From the NCBI GenBank assembly GCA_045803545.1, contig JBJMOW010000005.1, forward strand, positions 672,001 through 736,000: a stretch of 64,000 nucleotides of DNA, read 5' to 3'. Positions within the stretch are counted from its first letter, which is position 1. Each line of letters begins with the position of its first letter. The stretch is from Gemmatimonadaceae bacterium. GTDB lineage: Bacteria; Gemmatimonadota; Gemmatimonadetes; Gemmatimonadales; Gemmatimonadaceae. Of the stretch, positions 136-8,622 are shown one piece after another. The notes beneath the pieces are model-generated. The model made no database searches, was not told the origin of the DNA, and saw only the letters and a program-made list of their open reading frames with translations. The translations under genes and the position numbers were made by a program.

Positions 136-1164
136 ATGATTCGCCGCCGCTGGCTGTTTGGTCGTAGCGTCGCTTGCGTATCTATCGCGCTGTCGGTCGG
201 TTCCTGCGCGACGTCAGGCGGCGGCACAACGCCGGAGTCATTCTACGATCAGACCTATCTGTGGTCTTCCCATAACTGGGCGTTCCGTCAGCGTTTTCCA
301 CGCGTCGACGCTCTGTTCAATGCCTTCGACTACGGTCACGCCAAGTTGTACGAGACGCTCTGGAGAAGTCCAGAAGCCCAACGAGCTGTCCTGGACCAGC
401 ATGAGTTCCAATTCATCACGCGAAATCTGCTGCGCCACCCGCCGAGCGTAGCGCTCGATGAAGCCGCGATCGCCCCGCAGTGGGAGAAGCTGGCTCCCGA
501 ATTAGCAGCGATGTTCGAGTGGGCTCACATGCTCCATCGCCAGATCTACGACGTGTGGGCCGATGACCGCATTCCGGAATCAGCGAAGGATGCGAAAGTG
601 GCCGAGCTCGTTCGGTACTACGAATCACGTCGGTCTCTCGCTTTCAGCACCAAGCCGAAAAACATGAACCTGATGGAAGGCCAGTCTTATTCGCTCTCTT
701 TCCGGAAACGATTCCCGACTTACAACGGGCTCATTTGGTCGTACCATTGGCTGCAGATGACGCTCTATGAGGCACTGCTCGCGTCACACAATCCTGGTGA
801 GCGGCAGCAGAATGTCGATGGGGTAGTCGCCAGATTCTGGGCGCTGATCGACAGCGCTCCGCGAAGTCTGCCGACAGTGATGCCGCAATCGCCAGCGATT
901 GCACCGCGTTTTTCCGATCGCTATCCGGAAGCGGCTATCATCTTCGACAACTTGCACTCACTGCACGATGTCGTGTCCGACATCCTCGTCGACCCGGCGA
1001 TTCCCCGGCGCGACAAGCGGCGTCGCCTCCTGGACGCCGCTGCGGCCTATCGCGATGATGTGTCCTCAGTTGTGACCGTCGGCGACTGGAAAGCGATGGC
1101 CGACGCGATGGGGCTCGCCAATATGGGCGGCCCCGCGCCGATCACGTCCGACGCGCGGCGTTGA
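136..1164 (+). CDS. Hypothetical lipoprotein with four internal His-bearing helical repeats (putative metal-binding)
   Basis: 342-aa ORF; signal peptide ending VGSC; repeated motifs DYGH/HMLH/HWLQ/HSLH; 3' end overlaps the convergent permease by 23 nt. Confidence 0.7.
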   Translation: MIRRRWLFGRSVACVSIALSVGSCATSGGGTTPESFYDQTYLWSSHNWAFRQRFPRVDALFNAFDYGHAKLYETLWRSPEAQRAVLDQHEFQFITRNLLRHPPSVALDEAAIAPQWEKLAPELAAMFEWAHMLHRQIYDVWADDRIPESAKDAKVAELVRYYESRRSLAFSTKPKNMNLMEGQSYSLSFRKRFPTYNGLIWSYHWLQMTLYEALLASHNPGERQQNVDGVVARFWALIDSAPRSLPTVMPQSPAIAPRFSDRYPEAAIIFDNLHSLHDVVSDILVDPAIPRRDKRRRLLDAAAAYRDDVSSVVTVGDWKAMADAMGLANMGGPAPITSDARR

Positions 1165-1975
1165 TTCCGCCGACGATCGCCAATAACAAGCCCGCCGCCA
1201 CCACGATCGCCGCGCCGGTTGGCAAATCCATTTTGTACGACGCCCACAGGCCAGCCACGCTCGCGATCGCCGCAATCGCCCACCCGATGATGAGCCGATT
1301 TCTCCATTCGGCGGAAAGAATTGTCGCGCAAACCGCCGGCACGATCAGGTAAGCAAAAGTGAGCAACACCCCACCGAGCCGAACGAAGCTGACCACTACC
1401 AGCGCGAACGCGGCGTAGAATAGAAAATCCCACAGCCGAACGCTTACTCCTTCGGCGAACGCTCTTTCGGGATCGGAGGAAATGAGCACAAAGCGCTTGT
1501 GAAACGCGCCATAGAACGCGCCGAGCGCCGCGAACACCAGCACTCTCTGCCCGACCTCACCCTTGGTGACGTTGAGGATGTCGCCGGTGAGGAGGTGCTC
1601 AAGCTCCTCCTTACCACCGGCAACGCGGCTGAGCAGAAGAATCACCGCCGCCGCAGCCACGACGAAGGTGATCCCGATGATCGCCTCCTGTGGAACAGCC
1701 TGCCTCGTCCTGCTGCGCGTCCAGCTGAAAAACGCCGCGCCGAGGAAAGTGACGCCAAGTGAGATCCAGAATGTGATTCGATCCTCGAAGTGATATCCCA
1801 TCAGCAGCGCAACGCAGGTTCCGAGCGTTGCGACCTGTGCCAGTGCAAGATCGACGAAGATTACTTCGCGTTTGACGACGTGCAGTCCGAGATAGACGAG
1901 CAGCGGAGGGAACAACAGGGAGGCCACGAGTGGCCACTTCATGACCTCCCACGCCAGCCCGAAATCGCTGCTCAT
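1142..1975 (-). CDS. Metal (Zn/Mn/Fe-type) ABC transporter permease, ZnuB/MntB family
   Basis: Highly hydrophobic; motifs 'FVDLALAQVA', 'LLTGDIL', 'GGVLLTFAYLIVPA', 'DLPTGAAIV'; 4-nt overlap with the SBP gene. Confidence 0.88.
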   Translation of the reverse strand: MSSDFGLAWEVMKWPLVASLLFPPLLVYLGLHVVKREVIFVDLALAQVATLGTCVALLMGYHFEDRITFWISLGVTFLGAAFFSWTRSRTRQAVPQEAIIGITFVVAAAAVILLLSRVAGGKEELEHLLTGDILNVTKGEVGQRVLVFAALGAFYGAFHKRFVLISSDPERAFAEGVSVRLWDFLFYAAFALVVVSFVRLGGVLLTFAYLIVPAVCATILSAEWRNRLIIGWAIAAIASVAGLWASYKMDLPTGAAIVVAAGLLLAIVGGINAARRT

Positions 1976-2898
1976 TTCGCGCCTCCAAGCGCGGCCGCGA
2001 TTGACCGCACGAGGTTATCCATGTTGTCGAAGTAACTGGACGTGTTGCTCGCTGCACCCGGCTGCTGCGGCGCATCGATCACCGTTGCTCCGGTCTGGCG
2101 AGCGACGGTCTCAGCGGTTTTACGGTTCTGGAATGGTTGGACCAGAATGATCTTGGCGTTGTTGCGTTTCATTTCGCCGATTACCTGAGCAAGGTGCGCC
2201 GGAGACGGTGAGATGCCCGGCTTCGGCTCGAGCTCGTCGACAATCGACAATCCGAAACGCTGCGCGAAGTAGACGAAGTCGCGGTGGTACGTAACGATCT
2301 TCGCACCGCGATATGGAGCGAGCTGCTTCTGCCAGTCGGCGAGCTTGGCGTCGATCCGCGAATTGAACCTGGCGAGGTTCGCGTTGTAGGTTCCCGCATT
2401 TTTTGGATCCAGTGCGGCAAAGTGGATCGCGATGTTACGCGCGACGATTTTTGCGGCAGCCGGATCGATCATGAAATGCGGATTGCCGAGCGAGTGAATA
2501 TCGCCTTTCGATCTGTCGAAACTGGTCGGAATCTCGAGGAGTCTGATCCCTTCGGACGCGACAATGCGTCCCGGCGCACCAGCCGCGACCTTTGAGTTGC
2601 GCGAGTTCTCCAGCAGCGGCGGAAGCCAGCCCAGTTCGAGCTCAGCGCCGCCTTCAACCAGTGCATCCGCGCGATTCAGCGTGACGATGAAGCTTGGCTT
2701 CGCGTCGACGAAGTGCGGATCCTCGGTTGGCTTGGCCAATGCGACGACGTTGACGCGATCGCCGCCGATCTCGCGCGCCACTGACGCGAGGTCCGGAGTT
2801 GTTGCGACGACTTTGAGTTGCGCGGTTGCCTGTGCGCTCACGAACGAGATCGCGCCCAGGCTCAGCGCTGCCATTCTATTTATCATTTTCGTTTTCAT
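1972..2898 (-). CDS. Metal ABC transporter substrate-binding protein (ZnuA/TroA cluster A-I)
   Basis: Signal peptide then 'LKVVATTPDLASVAREIGGD', 'EDPHF', 'GNPHF', 'TYH', 'EPKPGISPSPAHL'; start moved to ATG 2898 (MKTK). Confidence 0.9.
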   Translation of the reverse strand: MKTKMINRMAALSLGAISFVSAQATAQLKVVATTPDLASVAREIGGDRVNVVALAKPTEDPHFVDAKPSFIVTLNRADALVEGGAELELGWLPPLLENSRNSKVAAGAPGRIVASEGIRLLEIPTSFDRSKGDIHSLGNPHFMIDPAAAKIVARNIAIHFAALDPKNAGTYNANLARFNSRIDAKLADWQKQLAPYRGAKIVTYHRDFVYFAQRFGLSIVDELEPKPGISPSPAHLAQVIGEMKRNNAKIILVQPFQNRKTAETVARQTGATVIDAPQQPGAASNTSSYFDNMDNLVRSIAAALGGAK

Positions 2899-2911
2899 GT
2901 TGGTTGATGGA

Positions 2912-4258
2912 TTAGAACTTGTGTGCAGCATGGGCGCCGATCAGGAACTGAAGCTGCACCCACAGTGAATGATCGGTGCCAACTGCCTTGCGATTGTCAT
3001 AGTTGTACTGGACGCCGATTCTGGAAAACTCGGTGGGGTACCAGGTGAGGTTCGGAGACCAGCGGGTTTGATCCCCGCGCAAATCCGTTGCGAATGAGCC
3101 GGGGTCGCCGTGCTCGAATTCGCCGCGAAGCCCGGCAACAATGCGCGGTTTGATACCCCACAGCACCTGCGCATATCCGCCGCGATCCTTCAACACTTCA
3201 CTGGGCAGTGTGACAAAGAGCTCGTCTTGCTCCAGGCGTTGCGCCGCATCGTAGCGCCGCCACATCGCCTCGGTTTGCAGCGACAGGAAAGGAAACCCCG
3301 CCTGCGCGTTGGCCGCTTTCCACTTCCAATAGAGATCGGCTCCGTAGATCTGAGTTTTCGCCGCAGGCCCGGAATTATTGGGCCCGAACGCTCCGGATAC
3401 GCCAAGCACCACGGTTTGCGTTTCGGTCAAATCGAACGAGGTATTGATTCTCGGAACGATCAATAAATCCGCGAATCCATTGCTCACCGGTCGATCATCG
3501 ATGACACCTCCATGAATTTCCGATGACTCAGGCGAGCGAAAACTCGACGTGGTCCCACCCGTCGCATTCATGACGGCGACCAGCGCCTCGGTATAAAACG
3601 GTGTCGGCAGCAACCATGACAGACGCACGCCCTGGCTGCGCAATCCGTCCGGTCCGAACATTCGTGTCAGCACCAGCGGCGCATCGATGAACGCCCACGA
3701 GTGCGGATGCTGCGGGTTCTGGCGGCCAAACTCGGCGAAGAACTGCCCGAACTTGAGCTGAAGGTTCCACGGCAATGATGTCGTCAGACCGTAAGCTTCT
3801 TCGAGCTCGATACCACTTTCGCCGGCGGAATCGATCTTGAGAACGATATTGCTGAAGCCTTTGAAGTACGGATCCACGTTCCCGTCGAGCGAAATCTCGG
3901 CGTTGGGAATCGTGAAGCCGTTGACCTTCGGATCGTGATCGCCGCGCTCGATTGCGCCGATGTCATGAGCCGTCGACCAGCCGGCATCCGTCAGGGCGAC
4001 GAAACCGATATTCATGTAGCTACCCGTCGCAACCGGACCCTGCGCGGGCGCAGCAGCCGCGGATGTATCGGCGTTTTGCGCTCCGAGCTCCTTTTCGAGC
4101 TGCTTGACGAGCGCGATAGAATCAGCACGCGCGATGCTATCAGCGCGCGCGATCGAGTCCTGCTTTGATTTTGACGCTGGTATTTGTGCGTTGCTCCGTG
4201 CCGGCAAGCCTACGCAGACCAGAAGCGCGAGCGCGCTGAATGTCTGCCTGATGTACAT
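2912..4258 (-). CDS. Outer-membrane beta-barrel protein of the metal-uptake operon
   Basis: Signal peptide; amphipathic strands; His motifs 'GDHDP', 'NPQHPHSW'; C-terminal 'GAHAAHKF' ending in Phe; SD AAAGGAGG upstream. Confidence 0.75.
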   Translation of the reverse strand: MYIRQTFSALALLVCVGLPARSNAQIPASKSKQDSIARADSIARADSIALVKQLEKELGAQNADTSAAAAPAQGPVATGSYMNIGFVALTDAGWSTAHDIGAIERGDHDPKVNGFTIPNAEISLDGNVDPYFKGFSNIVLKIDSAGESGIELEEAYGLTTSLPWNLQLKFGQFFAEFGRQNPQHPHSWAFIDAPLVLTRMFGPDGLRSQGVRLSWLLPTPFYTEALVAVMNATGGTTSSFRSPESSEIHGGVIDDRPVSNGFADLLIVPRINTSFDLTETQTVVLGVSGAFGPNNSGPAAKTQIYGADLYWKWKAANAQAGFPFLSLQTEAMWRRYDAAQRLEQDELFVTLPSEVLKDRGGYAQVLWGIKPRIVAGLRGEFEHGDPGSFATDLRGDQTRWSPNLTWYPTEFSRIGVQYNYDNRKAVGTDHSLWVQLQFLIGAHAAHKF

Positions 4259-4261
4259 GTT

Positions 4262-4317
4262 CCTCCTTTAAGAAGTGTGAGACTGACGACAGCCAGTTGA
4301 TCAGACTTCTTGGGAGG
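4262..4317 (-). promoter_or_regulatory. SD-sequestering mRNA hairpin between the RAPP leader and the OM-barrel gene
   Basis: mRNA: CCUCC-C-AAGAAGU-CUGAUCA-ACUGGC-UGUC-GUCAGU-CUCAC-ACUUCUU-AAA-GGAGG-AAC-AUG; CCUCC pairs with GGAGG, AAGAAGU with ACUUCUU, ACUGGC with GUCAGU. Confidence 0.7.
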
Positions 4318-4660
4318 GTGGGGCTCGGCAGGAGTTTGGTAGGAGTTGCGGGGCGGAAAGGCGCTCGAGCGCCAAGCGCGCGAGAGCGACGTGCCGAATC
4401 GCGAGAATAGCGAGCGGCGGCGGCGCGTGGCTGAACCCATTCTGCATCGACAGCAGCGCGCAGGACGCGCAAGCTGCGTCGTTGTGTCCGTGGTGCAGAT
4501 TGGTGCCGCTCTCTTCTGTATGGGATACAGCGCTGGTCTCATCGCGCGCCAATGTTAGCGCAGCGCTGACGATTCCCAGCTGGCCGATAACGACGAGGAG
4601 AACCGCGAGCAGGCGCCAACGCCTGTCGGACGATCTGTTGAAGAGGTAACCGCGCATCAT
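4301..4660 (-). CDS. DUF2946/CruR-like leader protein with TM segment, His cluster, CxxC and C-terminal RAPP arrest motif
   Basis: MMRGYLF...WRLLAVLLVVIGQLGIVSAALTLA...HHGHNDAACASC...CRAPPSQEV*; ends 42 nt before the OM-barrel start; start could be 4660 or 4657. Confidence 0.75.
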   Translation of the reverse strand: MMRGYLFNRSSDRRWRLLAVLLVVIGQLGIVSAALTLARDETSAVSHTEESGTNLHHGHNDAACASCALLSMQNGFSHAPPPLAILAIRHVALARLALERLSAPQLLPNSCRAPPSQEV

Positions 4661-4735
4661 TTCTGTAGTTAAAGTACCCGGGACAGGCCAAAAGGGTAGC
4701 ACTTGGATTGTGCGCATGGCATGTTTCCACGTTCC

Positions 4736-7000
4736 ATGAAGCGTGAAGATGCCCTCGACTACCACGCGTCCGGACGACCGGGCAAAATCGCGGTAGTACC
4801 CACTAAGCCTCTCAATAATCAGCGCGATCTCGCCCTCGCCTATTCACCCGGCGTCGCGCTTCCCTGCCTCGAGATCAAGGCCAACCCTGAAGACGCCTAC
4901 AAGTACACCGCCAGAGGAAATCTCGTCGCGGTCGTCACCAACGGCACGGCGGTCCTTGGGTTGGGCAACATCGGCGCCCTCGCGGGCAAGCCGGTGATGG
5001 AAGGCAAAGGCAACCTGTTCAAGCAGTTTGCCGATCTGGATGTCTTCGACCTCGAGGTCGGTTCCGAAAACCCTGACGACGTCATTCGGTTCTGCCAGTT
5101 GCTCGAGCCCACCGTCGGCGGAATCAATCTCGAAGACATTCGCGCGCCTGATTGTTTTTACATCGAGGAAACGCTGCGGAAGACGATGAAGATTCCCGTC
5201 TTCCACGACGATCAGCACGGCACCGCAATCATTTCCGGCGCGGCGCTCCTGAACGCACTTGAGATCGTCGGCAAGAAAATCGAGAAGATCAGAGTCGTTT
5301 TCTCGGGCGCCGGCGCAGCCGCGATCTCGACAGCCGAGCACTACGTCAGGCTCGGTGTTCCGCGTCAAAACATTCTCCTCACCGATCGACAAGGTGTGGT
5401 TTACGCTGGGCGAGCCGGTGAGGTGGATCCATACAAAGCGCGCTTCGCACACGAGACCAAAGCGCGCACCATCGCTGACGCGTTGGTTGGCGCAGACGTC
5501 TTCGTCGGACTCTCGGTCGCGGGCGCGATCACTGGCGAAATGGTCGCCAGGATGGCCAAGAAACCGATCGTGTTCGCGCTCGCCAATCCAGAGCCGGAGA
5601 TTCTCCCTGACCAGGTGAGGGCTGTGCGCAGTGACGCGATTATCGCCACGGGTCGCAGCGATTATTCCAACCAGGTCAACAACGTGCTCGGCTTCCCGTT
5701 CATCTTTCGCGGCGCTATCGACGCGCGGGCGACGCAGGTGAACGAGGAGATGAAGATGGCAGCGACGCGCGCGCTCGCCGCGCTTGCCAAGGAAGACGTA
5801 CCGGAAAGTGTGTCTCGCCTGTACGGGCTGCGCTCGGTGAAATTTGGGCCGGACTACCTGATTCCCTTCCCTTTCGATCCGCGGGTGCTGCTGTGGGTCG
5901 CTCCGGCAGTCGCCTGGGCTGCGGTCGCCAGCGGCGTGGCAAAGGAGATGATCGATCTCGAGAACTATCGCGAGCAGCTCGAGGCAAGGCTCGGCAGGGC
6001 ACGGGGAATCATGCGCGGGATTATCAATCGCGCGTGCGGCGACCCGAAGCGCATTGTTTTCCCCGAAGGCGAAGAACCGAAGATCATGCGCGCCGCGCGG
6101 CAGCTGATCGACGAAGGCATTGCATCGCCAATTTTGCTCGGACAGCGAGCTGTGATCGAGCGACTGGCCACCGACAACCACATCTCGCTGCGTGACATTG
6201 CCATCGTCGATCCTGCGACTTCCGAAAAGCGTGACAAGTACGCGGACTATTTGTGGCAGCGGCGGCAACGCAAAGGATTGAGCCACGGCGAAGCTCACCA
6301 ACTTCTGTTCAACACGAATTATTTCGGCTCGGTGATGGTCGCCTGCGGCGACGCTGACGCCCTGCTCTCAGGCGTCGGTATGCACTATCCGGAGACGATC
6401 CGCCCTGCGCTGCAGGTGATTGGCGCTCATCCCAAGGCGGAGATCGTCAGTGGTCTCTACATGCTCGTCTTCGAAAAGCACGTCATCTTTTGTGGAGATA
6501 CGACGGTCAACATCGATCCGACGGCCGAGCAGTTGGCACAGATAGCGTACTCCGCCGGTCGAATCGTTCGCACTTTTGGCATCGATCCCAAAATCGCGAT
6601 GCTGTCATTCTCCAACTTCGGATCGGTTCGGCATCCCGAAGCGGAAAAAGTCGCAAAAGCTGTCGCGATTCTGAGAAAGCGCGACCCGGCGATGATCGTC
6701 GATGGCGAGATGCAGGCGGATACCGCGATGGACGAGCAGATCCTCCGCACCGGGTATTCGTTCAGCGTGCTGAAGGAACGGGCAAACGTGTTGATTTTCC
6801 CCAATCTCAGCGCCGGGAACATCGCCTACAAGTTGTTGCACCATCTGGGCGGTGCGACGAAAATCGGGCCCATTCTGCTGGGTATGAATCTTCCCGTTCA
6901 CGTCCTGGAGCAAGGGGCCGATGTTCAGGACATCGTGAACATGGCCGCAGTCGCCGTCATCGACGCGCAGCAGCGGATGAGTGAGAGGAATCGTAGTTAA
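4736..7000 (+). CDS. maeB: NADP-dependent malic enzyme with phosphotransacetylase-like C-terminal domain
   Basis: 'LAYSPGVA', 'GKPVMEGK', 'FHDDQHGTA', 'GAGAAA', 'ALANP'; PTA-like 'MLSFSNFGS', 'DGEMQAD'; start set at ATG 4736 ([10 protein letters not shown]). Confidence 0.95.
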
Positions 7001-8622
7001 TGGCCACTGAGATGAAACCGCAGCGGACGTCCGTTCGTCGCGAAAGCAGAATGGATCTTACCCGGCAGGGTTTGACCCCGCACGGGGTGGTCCATTGGAA
7101 TTTGATTGCGCCCGAGCTCTTTCAGGCGGCGGCCCGACGTAATGAAGGCGAATTTGCCGATATGGGGCCGTTCGTCGCCGTCACATCGCCTCACACCGGC
7201 CGCTCGCCAAACGACAAGTTCGTCGTCAAAGAGCCATCATCGGAAGAGGATGTCGACTGGGGAAAGGTGAATCAGCCGATGTCCGTCGACCAGTACAAGA
7301 CCCTTCTGGCCGACGTGCGACAGTATTTGAGCCGGCTCGACGAGCTGTTCGTGGAAGATCTTTACTGTGGCGCTGATCCCGCATACCGGTTGTCAGTGCG
7401 CTACATCTCGCCAAACGCGTGGCACATGGCGTTTGTGCGGAACATGTTCATTCGCCCTGAGCTGAGCGACCTGCCGACGTTCGATCCGAACTTTACCGTG
7501 CTGCACGCGCCTGAGTACCAGGCGGAGCCCGGTCGACATGGAACCAGAAGCAGCACTTTCATCGTTTTGAACATCGCCGAGCGGACGATTCTGATCGGCG
7601 GCACCCGTTACGCGGGTGAGCTCAAGAAGGCGATGTTCACGGTTATGAACTACCTGCTCCCAAAACAGGGTGTGTTTCCGATGCACTGCTCGGCGAACGT
7701 CGGCAAGGAAGGCGACACCGCGCTGTTCTTCGGCTTGTCGGGGACGGGCAAGACAACGTTGTCGGCCGACCCGCATCGCGGCCTGATCGGCGACGACGAA
7801 CACGGCTGGTCCTCTGACGGGATTTTCAATTTCGAGGGTGGCTGTTATGCGAAGGTGATCAACCTGTCGCCAGAGAGCGAACCCGACATTTATCGCACGA
7901 CGCAGATGTTCGGGACCGTGCTTGAAAACGTGGTACTCGATCCGGCGACCAAGAAAGTTCGATTCGCCGATCAGTCGATCACGGAAAACACCCGCGCGTC
8001 ATATCCACTCCACTACATTCGGAATTATGTCGAGGGCGGCCGGGGCGGTCATCCACGTAACGTCATCCTCCTCACTGCAGACGCATTCGGAGTGTTGCCG
8101 CCGATCGCGAAGCTGACTCCTCAGCAGGCGATGTACTTCTTTCTCTCGGGATACACGGCAAAAGTCGCCGGCACCGAGCGCGGGGTGAAGGAGCCGCAGC
8201 CAACTTTCAGCGCGTGCTTCGGCGCGGCCTTTCTCGTTTGGCCGGCGGTTAAATACGCGAAGATGCTCGGCCAGCTGCTCAAGGAGCATCAGTCGAATAC
8301 GTGGCTGATCAACACGGGCTGGACCGGTGGCCCTTACGGAAAGGGCAAGCGAATCAAGCTCAGTTACACTCGGACCATCGCCAAAGCTGCACTAGCCGGC
8401 GAACTGGATCAGGCCAAGACACGACAAGATTCCGTCTTCGGCCTCGCAGTCCCCGTGGAGATTCCCGGAGTGCCGGGAGACGTCTTGAACCCGCGCACAA
8501 CGTGGGCTGATCCGAATGCCTACGACGAGCACGCGAAAAAGTTGGCAATGATGTTCCGCGACAACTTCGCGAAGTTTGGAACCATTGACGCGCCGATCAG
8601 AAACGCTGGGCCAAAAGTCTGA
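7000..8622 (+). CDS. pckA: Phosphoenolpyruvate carboxykinase (ATP)
   Basis: 'TGRSPNDKF', 'YAGELKK', 'FFGLSGTGKTTLS', 'LIGDDEHGW', 'NFEGGCYAK'. Confidence 0.97.
   Translation: MATEMKPQRTSVRRESRMDLTRQGLTPHGVVHWNLIAPELFQAAARRNEGEFADMGPFVAVTSPHTGRSPNDKFVVKEPSSEEDVDWGKVNQPMSVDQYKTLLADVRQYLSRLDELFVEDLYCGADPAYRLSVRYISPNAWHMAFVRNMFIRPELSDLPTFDPNFTVLHAPEYQAEPGRHGTRSSTFIVLNIAERTILIGGTRYAGELKKAMFTVMNYLLPKQGVFPMHCSANVGKEGDTALFFGLSGTGKTTLSADPHRGLIGDDEHGWSSDGIFNFEGGCYAKVINLSPESEPDIYRTTQMFGTVLENVVLDPATKKVRFADQSITENTRASYPLHYIRNYVEGGRGGHPRNVILLTADAFGVLPPIAKLTPQQAMYFFLSGYTAKVAGTERGVKEPQPTFSACFGAAFLVWPAVKYAKMLGQLLKEHQSNTWLINTGWTGGPYGKGKRIKLSYTRTIAKAALAGELDQAKTRQDSVFGLAVPVEIPGVPGDVLNPRTTWADPNAYDEHAKKLAMMFRDNFAKFGTIDAPIRNAGPKV

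Follow-up and report, generated by a model that had tools for sequence, protein, structure and literature searches.

Nascent-chain metal sensors have come to light recently, and the two that have been studied, CruR and CutF, both respond to copper, in opposite directions. According to the parts of the published accounts available to us, CruR (Bp2923) of Bordetella pertussis is the prototype of the Pfam family DUF2946 and carries a CxxC motif 45 residues, give or take one or two, from a RAPP motif (PMC9426467); its arrest has been demonstrated and toeprinted (PMC12992588). CutF, of the CutF–cutO system of Rhodobacter capsulatus, also separates its Cys motif from a proline motif by 45 residues (PMC9973294), and its metal-bound state is the ON state (10.1101/2022.11.11.516240 = PMC9973294). 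The same study catalogued 5,334 CutF-like proteins, whose commonest neighbour is an outer-membrane efflux protein (OEP; 10.1101/2022.11.11.516240). Here we describe a locus of similar organization in a Gemmatimonadaceae bacterium (assembly GCA_045803545.1). The stretch of DNA analysed, hereafter the window, comprises 64,000 nucleotides of contig JBJMOW010000005.1 (positions 672,001 to 736,000). On its minus strand it contains a leader open reading frame (ORF) ending in RAPP, followed by a predicted hairpin that sequesters a porin-like gene's Shine-Dalgarno sequence (SD), and by genes for a ZnuA-family protein and an ABC-3 permease. We consider it probable that the locus shares the switch architecture of the CruR/CutF class, whichever direction its response takes. 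The fuller reading, a nascent-peptide translational switch of this class that is ON in the metal-bound state, as in CutF, is the one to which we lean, tentatively and with real doubt. The class of leader-hairpin switch has already been published; what is new here is what may be one cassette linking uptake-type and efflux-type loci.

The likeness to CutF–cutO lies in the small, presumably exported leader, whose Cys motif precedes a C-terminal proline stall motif by about 45 residues (see also 10.1101/2025.02.05.636593), and in a stem-loop that covers the next gene's SD and is melted by stalling, which in our case is predicted. Furthermore, OEP genes and efflux genes of the resistance-nodulation-division (RND) type are the commonest neighbours of the CutF-like class. 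In contrast, CutF has CxxxC and a PPP-type proline-rich end involving elongation factor P (EF-P), whereas the window leader has CxxC, a His cluster and RAPP. The anti-SD arm in the window is formed by the last Pro codon and the next four codons, with a spacer of only 42 nt, and the cargo is porin, ZnuA-type and ABC-3 genes in the phylum Gemmatimonadota rather than a multicopper oxidase.

With CruR, the window leader shares CxxC, a RAPP motif a few residues from the C terminus, a spacing of 44 residues compared with 45, an N-terminal export segment, and its position as the first gene of a metal-transport operon. However, CruR acts through Rho-dependent termination over a 162-nt spacer, whereas the window has an SD-sequestering hairpin, and the cargo of CruR is a TonB-dependent receptor for copper. 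The window leader also scores under the Pfam cut-off, and the direction of CruR, in which metal releases the arrest, is doubtful for the window. ApdA/ApdP and SecM/MifM are similar in that arrest exposes a downstream ribosome-binding site, but they monitor Sec or YidC and control localisation factors, whereas the window leader has a metal-type module and precedes metal transport genes; none of the three genes behind it (porin-like, ZnuA-family, ABC-3 permease) is a protein-localisation gene.

In our literature search, no paper turned up that describes a Znu-type operon headed by a RAPP leader, although the supplementary lists of the CutF and CruR papers may hold such contexts. The main text of the CutF paper (10.1101/2022.11.11.516240) mentions no ZnuA, zinc, ABC, Gemmatimonad or RAPP, while its supplements may list such contexts, and the main text of an EMBO J 2025 survey mentions none of porin, zinc, efflux, Gemmatimonad, substrate-binding and stem-loop.

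Leader ORF and its conservation

The leader and its segments are located as follows.

4301–4660, minus strand: leader ORF of 119 aa (ATG at 4660, TGA 4303-4301), encoding a putative diverged DUF2946 / CruR / CutF-like nascent-chain sensor
4547–4612, minus strand: codons of the hydrophobic segment, residues 17-38, read from the translation
4460–4522, minus strand: codons of the His/Glu/Cys module, H47 to C67 (HTEESGTNLHHGHNDAACASC), the presumed metal site
4316–4345, minus strand: codons of the arrest segment LLPNSCRAPP, residues 106-115, with RAPP at 4327-4316

By inspection, the N terminus is Arg-rich, with five Arg within residues 3-16 ahead of the hydrophobic segment, an arrangement that suggests an N-in membrane anchor or a signal peptide. 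Residues 56-67 read HHGHNDAACASC and lie inside the H47-C67 cluster; the CxxC motif is C64-A-S-C67. RAPP occupies residues 112-115 at a distance of 44 residues from CxxC and is followed by SQEV and the stop codon, which lies 42 nt ahead of the porin AUG. The leader has no SD of its own. These features agree with the original prediction, made from the sequence alone, of a leader of about 119 residues with one hydrophobic segment, a His cluster plus CxxC, and RAPP at 4327-4316.

The leader matches DUF2946 (PF11162) over residues 41-115, equivalent to profile positions 41-117 of 117, with 17.5 bits and an E-value of 0.007, and does not reach the Pfam gathering cut-off of 23.7. It falls within the filters for CutF-like proteins, with 119 aa, PP at 114-115, a hydrophobic N-terminal segment and the 42-nt spacer. 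Judged by its sequence, the leader stands at the margin of the published DUF2946 / CruR / CutF class, as a diverged branch. The kinship with CruR and DUF2946 proposed originally is thereby upheld by CxxC, RAPP, the 44-residue spacing and the export segment, and left short by the profile score.

To define the family, we collected 178 leader homologues by protein search and gathered 142 loci, 134 of which contain the leader and 131 of which were usable. Sixteen positions are invariant in 58 aligned leaders (G26, Q27, E41, S43, H47, E49, G52, H56, G58, H59, A62, C64, C67, R112, P114 and P115), and these comprise all six candidate metal ligands, H47, E49, H56, H59, C64 and C67, unchanged in 58 of 58. 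DUF2946 is matched at E ≤ 0.01 by 33 of the 58 aligned relatives, with a best value of 1.9e-5. RAPP is found in 128 of the 131 usable loci, with RGPP in one and RPPP in two. Where RAPP is present, three residues follow it in 106 loci, four in 21 and two in one, and nine residues follow the lone RGPP. The two RPPP variants, L068 and L069, are metagenome loci of the window's own clade in which the leader is otherwise conserved.

The distance between CxxC and RAPP is 43-45 residues in all 111 distinct leaders, and exactly 44 in 92 of them. The linker that spans it is variable in sequence and near constant in length: its mean majority fraction is 0.46, compared with 0.91 for the arrest segment, 0.85 for the sensor module and 0.77 for the hydrophobic segment. 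Such ruler-like spacing across a variable linker, together with the six invariant His, Glu and Cys residues, argues that sensing is coupled to the arrest site.

A predicted hairpin over the start site of the porin-like gene

Two further features connect the end of the leader to the next gene.

4262–4317, minus strand: SD-sequestering hairpin, a predicted fold with 5' arm, inner hairpin and 3' arm
4256–4266, minus strand: SD GGAGG (4266-4262) and AUG (4258-4256) of the porin-like gene, read from the sequence

The 5' arm, formed by the last Pro and SQEV codons, consists of CCUCC (4317-4313) and AAGAAGU (4311-4305), which pair with GGAGG (4266-4262) and ACUUCUU (4276-4270) of the 3' arm, respectively. 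Just 3' of the UGA at 4303-4301, ACUGGC (4297-4292) pairs with GUCAGU (4287-4282) to form the inner hairpin (4297-4282). Folding of 4340-4240 (101 nt) yields a minimum free energy (MFE) of -33 kcal/mol and a z-score of -4.40, with none of 200 shuffles as stable, and for an 83-nt cut of the same hairpin the z-score is -2.93, with two of 200 shuffles equally good. The SD has a mean unpaired probability of 0.00 in free mRNA, calculated in a 186-nt context. The three pairings claimed in the original prediction, the use of the last Pro and SQEV codons as the 5' arm, the burial of the next gene's SD in the 3' arm and the stability of the fold on the minus strand between 4240 and 4340 were all reproduced.

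In the model, opening 4268-4253 costs 9.4 kcal/mol in free mRNA, 5.8 kcal/mol when 4333-4306 is masked to represent an arrested ribosome, and 4.6 kcal/mol when 4318-4291 is masked to represent a ribosome at the stop codon. At E ≤ 1, no Rfam family matched within 4000-4900. We also considered that an intrinsic terminator might act by attenuation; a scan of the leader strand within 4100-5000 found no terminator, and this mechanism was therefore rejected.

To assess the conservation of the hairpin, we compared 88 distinct segments from the group-A loci. Of the 11 bases at -14 to -4, at least 4 are paired with the stretch of codons running from Pro114 to the stop in the MFE structure of every one of the 88. 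Of 14 representatives drawn from four arm-sequence classes, 13 are predicted to fold with the same topology, L141 being without it. The arms themselves differ by class: CCUCC-CAAGAAGU pairs with ACUUCUU-GGAGG, CCCAGAGAA with UUCUCUGGG, and CCCGGAAUUUU with AAAAUUCUUCGGGG. The inner stem varies among the classes too, including a change between UGA and UAA stop codons. When duplex energies were calculated across classes, cognate arms were favoured in classes I-III; class I 5' arms, for example, reach -19.7 kcal/mol with class I 3' arms and -12.2 kcal/mol with those of class III. An alignment fitted to the model, and so biased towards the structure, has 90.7% of its cells paired, compared with 36-57% for slid partners, and 15 of its cells are changed on both sides, a number reached by 0 of 500 shuffles. 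Within the window's clade (15 sequences) the stems vary little, although by eye one position is A-U in three sequences, G-C in five and A·C in seven. The peptide after RAPP varies freely (SQEV, AREV, REA, GIF and others) yet the pairing is retained, which indicates selection on the RNA.

Probable exchange of cargo behind the leader

The 131 usable loci fall into five classes according to what follows the hairpin.

OMP_direct, 58 loci of 131: porin gene straight after the hairpin; includes the window
OMP_remnant, 31 loci of 131: short relic ORF, then porin with its own start
OEP, 28 loci of 131: outer-membrane efflux protein after the hairpin
B_OMP, 11 loci of 131: distant group-B leader, long spacer, then porin
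Unknown, 3 loci of 131: cargo unclear

In the OEP class, all ten proteins tested belong to PF02321, and the remaining 18 loci were assigned by their similar N termini. In L051, a CzcB-type adaptor and a pump of the CusA/CzcA family (889 bits, cut-off 701) are encoded after the OEP gene. This locus shares its pckA and maeB neighbours with the window locus, where a NADP-malic enzyme with a phosphotransacetylase-like domain and PEP carboxykinase are encoded at 4703-8622 on the plus strand, divergently and upstream of the leader. The shared neighbours indicate that cargo was exchanged at one chromosomal place. The maeB-pckA pair flanks both efflux-type loci L041 and L051, with lgt between the pair and the leader. 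A regular expression for the heavy-metal RND signature of transmembrane helix 4 matched in neither L051 nor L041.

A survey of the genus showed a single leader copy in 29 of 36 relatives. Eight stretches of the genus were fetched, seven of which carry leader-OEP operons, while the eighth (G005) stops at the leader. An adaptor follows OEP in six of the seven, the contig of L152 ending within OEP, and RND pump sequence is present in four, at full length in three and partially in L153. In one metagenome bin, a porin locus (L038) and an OEP locus (L049) have leaders with near-identical sensor and arrest segments. In a quick tree, efflux-type leaders are interleaved with porin-type leaders, with at least five changes of cargo type, and the window's own leader clade (15 rows) is porin-type only.

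The relic ORFs of the OMP_remnant class have 5-125 codons and an N terminus like the signal peptide of the efflux protein (31 loci; for example L006, L009, L010, L011, L087, L111 and L128). The porin in these loci has an A-rich ribosome site of its own, 113-231 nt past the leader stop, and in some of them the SD or ATG of the relic has decayed. From their sequence, the relics look like recombination fossils of cargo exchange.

Leaders of group B (L012-L026, L153-L157) are distant, at about 30-47% identity, and have RAPP, a spacing of 44-45 residues and a spacer of 68-133 nt without the SD hairpin. They head either a porin operon or OEP-adaptor-RND operons, and the first gene starts with MRGRFIL... 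in both cases, which places the recombination joint inside the signal-peptide codons of the first gene. Taken as a whole, the promoter-like boxes described below, the leader, the anti-SD hairpin and the first signal-peptide codons may constitute a portable sensor cassette that has been recombined repeatedly, in two leader lineages, before an efflux pump or before porin-ZnuA-ZnuB; we put this forward as a possibility of which we are less than half convinced.

Genes behind the hairpin in the window

Three genes follow the hairpin in the window.

2912–4258, minus strand: porin-like outer-membrane protein, 448 aa, first gene after the hairpin, tentatively assigned by fold match
1972–2931, minus strand: ZnuA-family periplasmic metal-binding protein, 319 aa (PF01297, E 5e-58)
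1142–1975, minus strand: ABC-3 family permease, 277 aa (PF00950, E 9e-34), last gene of the operon, with a convergent gene next

The porin-like protein has a signal peptide, an N-terminal helix, a beta-barrel, a C-terminal Phe and many invariant His. It has no Pfam or NCBIfam match; among its more than 4272 homologues, one carries PF07396 and one PF07642. AlphaFold models it with a pLDDT of 70.5, and Foldseek ranks OprP first (PDB: 2o4v; E 6.5e-10, TM 0.56/0.60), followed among PDB entries by OprO and DcaP (TM 0.5-0.6). The invariant His are found in the motifs GDHDP, QHPH, IHG and HAAHKF, and the N-terminal region contains the repeat ADSIARADSIARADSIA. A similar RADSIS stretch occurs after the signal peptide in OEP proteins of related loci.

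The best NCBIfam model for the ZnuA-type protein is AztC, and the AztC, MntC and ZnuA equivalogs all score far under their cut-offs. Its closest solved relative is Synechocystis ZnuA (PDB: 2ov1/1pq4), with which the DPH, NPH and YH motifs, and hence three His, are aligned. Three His are the mark of zinc-type sites. The permease is the sole ABC-3 match in the genome. No ATPase gene was found in the window operon, nor behind the permease in eight of eight related loci checked, and the best metal-type ATPase match in this genome (93% complete) is BtuD/FecE-like and lies within a BtuCD-like locus of its own. In five of the eight related loci (L033, L039, L044, L052 and L056), the next gene on the same strand encodes a protein of 464 aa (466 in L033) with an MgtE-like N terminus by eye. 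The control of a ZnuA/ZnuB importer that was originally predicted is therefore retained with regard to the ZnuA-family and ABC-3 genes of the operon, and amended in that the first gene is porin-like and an ATPase gene is missing from it.

Promoter-like boxes and transcription

Upstream of the leader lies one further conserved feature.

4670–4698, minus strand: promoter-like boxes TACCCT (4698-4693) and TACTTTA (4676-4670), 22 nt from start to start, of putative function

The second box starts 16 nt ahead of the leader ATG in the window and 14-16 nt ahead in relatives. The boxes, TACC[CT]T and TAC[CT]TTA, are spaced by exactly 22 nt in 75 loci of both cargo types; at this exact spacing they are found in 42 of 53 OMP_direct, 17 of 28 OMP_remnant, 15 of 24 OEP and none of 10 group-B loci. 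Scanning 4100-5000 for the sigma-70 consensus yielded no promoter. The pattern suggests a promoter for a nearly leaderless mRNA, or else a regulator site. Four short contigs from soil RNA libraries fall on 2900-4800: two libraries contributed contigs inside the leader (4486-4652 and 4486-4646), and two further libraries contributed contigs inside the porin gene. Since DNA carry-over is possible, these give a weak hint of transcription of the leader.

Proposed mechanism and its alternatives

The footprint of a ribosome reaches about 15 nt downstream. We propose that arrest at RAPP would occur with the P site occupied by the Pro114 codon (4321-4319) and the A site by the Pro115 codon (4318-4316), an assignment based on ApdA/ApdP structures (PMC10951233) and the CruR toeprint (PMC12992588), as far as the available text of these papers describes them. 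The footprint of the arrested ribosome, extending to about 4306, would cover the whole 5' arm of the hairpin (4317-4305), which would free the SD and allow the porin gene to be translated. The ZnuA-type and ABC-3 genes would be translated next, perhaps through translational coupling at the ORF overlaps. The duration of the arrest would be set by the metal state of the His/Glu/Cys module, which may sit near the tunnel exit or in the SecY vestibule at that time. Because both masked states lower the opening cost, passing ribosomes would open the SD briefly and an arrested ribosome would hold it open, following the logic of SecM, MifM and CutF. The suggestion that a stalled ribosome opens the SD has gained in plausibility, with the 5' arm inside the RAPP-arrest footprint and the hairpin conserved. 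Under the reading we prefer, metal binding would prolong the arrest, and the operon would be switched ON by periplasmic metal, as in CutF. We lean to this direction because relatives use the same cassette to drive CusA/CzcA-type efflux operons. The metal sensed is probably Zn or another divalent or thiophilic metal.

Several observations weigh against this proposal. The cargo in the window is importer-like, with a ZnuA-type protein of three His, and CruR, the only studied DUF2946 leader of the RAPP type, is released by metal, according to the part of that study available to us (PMC9426467). In the model, opening the SD becomes only about 3.6 kcal/mol cheaper when an arrested ribosome masks its footprint, since a small alternative hairpin takes shape, and the spacer between SD and AUG is short, at 3 nt. 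In 31 loci the start codon at the hairpin opens a short relic only, and gating of the porin is therefore not direct everywhere. The bin that holds both L038 and L049 is labelled Thermoanaerobaculia, whereas all other homologues are from Gemmatimonadota; it may be mixed, which slightly weakens the same-organism argument. As for the hairpin, single-hairpin z-scores of the representatives spread from -0.46 to -4.42, and class IV arms show no preference for their cognate class in the duplex test. In a plain MAFFT alignment, two-sided changes are confined to 9 cells in 6 pairs, a count matched by 20 of 500 shuffles, and RNAalifold on the MAFFT alignment of the 88 segments returned no consensus structure. 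Most stems are merely conserved in sequence, and Pro codons (CCN) inherently complement a G-rich SD. Since RNAalifold gave no structure and the plain column count is weak, our case for conservation of the hairpin is built on single-sequence folds, the model-fitted alignment and cross-class duplex energies. What the covariation check envisaged by the original prediction brought out is accordingly mixed: SD pairing is kept throughout the 88 segments, and column-wise covariation is weak.

The strongest alternative, though in our view an unlikely one, is the direction of CruR. Here arrest would be the default and the SD would be open when metal is scarce; once metal folded the His/Cys module, the module would pull on the chain, the hairpin would re-form and uptake would be turned off. 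Such a response suits importer-like cargo, that is, a porin, a ZnuA-family protein with three aligned His and an ABC-3 permease, and it would follow CruR, which has RAPP, CxxC and a like spacing and whose arrest is relieved by copper, so far as the published portion at hand describes it (PMC9426467). The window's clade of 15 rows is porin-only, and its response could therefore have changed. However, the same leader, hairpin and boxes stand before CusA/CzcA-type efflux genes in about 28 of 131 loci, which are interleaved in the tree, and near-identical leaders head both cargos in one bin. Distant group-B leaders likewise head both cargos. An efflux pump turned off by metal makes no sense, and the metal-OFF direction is therefore left unsupported. 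The spacing is no guide to the direction, being 45 residues in CutF too. The original prediction had chosen this direction, with import ON when metal is scarce and shut off by metal; it was based only on the importer-like cargo, and we do not favour it in view of the efflux operons headed by the same module.

Constitutive coupling is a further alternative that we consider improbable. In this case any ribosome finishing the leader would melt the hairpin, RAPP would only lengthen the open time, output would be independent of metal, and the His/Cys module would have another role. The energy model is compatible with it, given that the SD is no harder to open with a ribosome at the stop than with an arrested one (4.6 compared with 5.8 kcal/mol), and so is the leader stop codon, only 42 nt from the porin AUG. 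On the other hand, such coupling does not account for six invariant His, Glu and Cys residues or for a spacing of 43-45 kept over a variable linker in 111 of 111 leaders, and the Cys motif is required for metal control in both CruR and CutF, as reported in the accessible parts of that work. Least likely of all, and in our judgement very improbable, is that the 119-aa protein serves chiefly as a periplasmic or membrane metallochaperone or sensing partner (CzcI/CopL-like), with the hairpin tuning stoichiometry or mRNA stability: the export segment and conserved metal-type motif would fit, and the available text of PMC9973294 considers CutF-like proteins that lack a proline motif, CzcI among them, as regulators, but 128 of 131 loci retain RAPP, in every case 2-4 residues from the end, conservation takes in the longer segment LLPNSCRAPP, and the linker varies in sequence and not in length.

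Implications for nascent-chain metal sensing

Should the cassette retain its direction, periplasmic metal would turn a zinc-type uptake system ON, which, speculatively, would amount to substrate-gated uptake or to rescue import under stress from another metal. We know of no Znu-type system for which metal-ON uptake logic has been described. Alternatively, the direction of a nascent-chain metal sensor may flip with very few changes. Near-identical leaders and hairpins on an efflux pump and on an uptake-type system, sometimes in one organism, provide a natural experiment, and comparison of the porin-type and efflux-type leaders should reveal the determinants of response direction and the identity of the metal sensed. 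With this locus, the reach of nascent-chain metal sensing would come to include the Gemmatimonadota, Znu-type transport and an outer-membrane porin.

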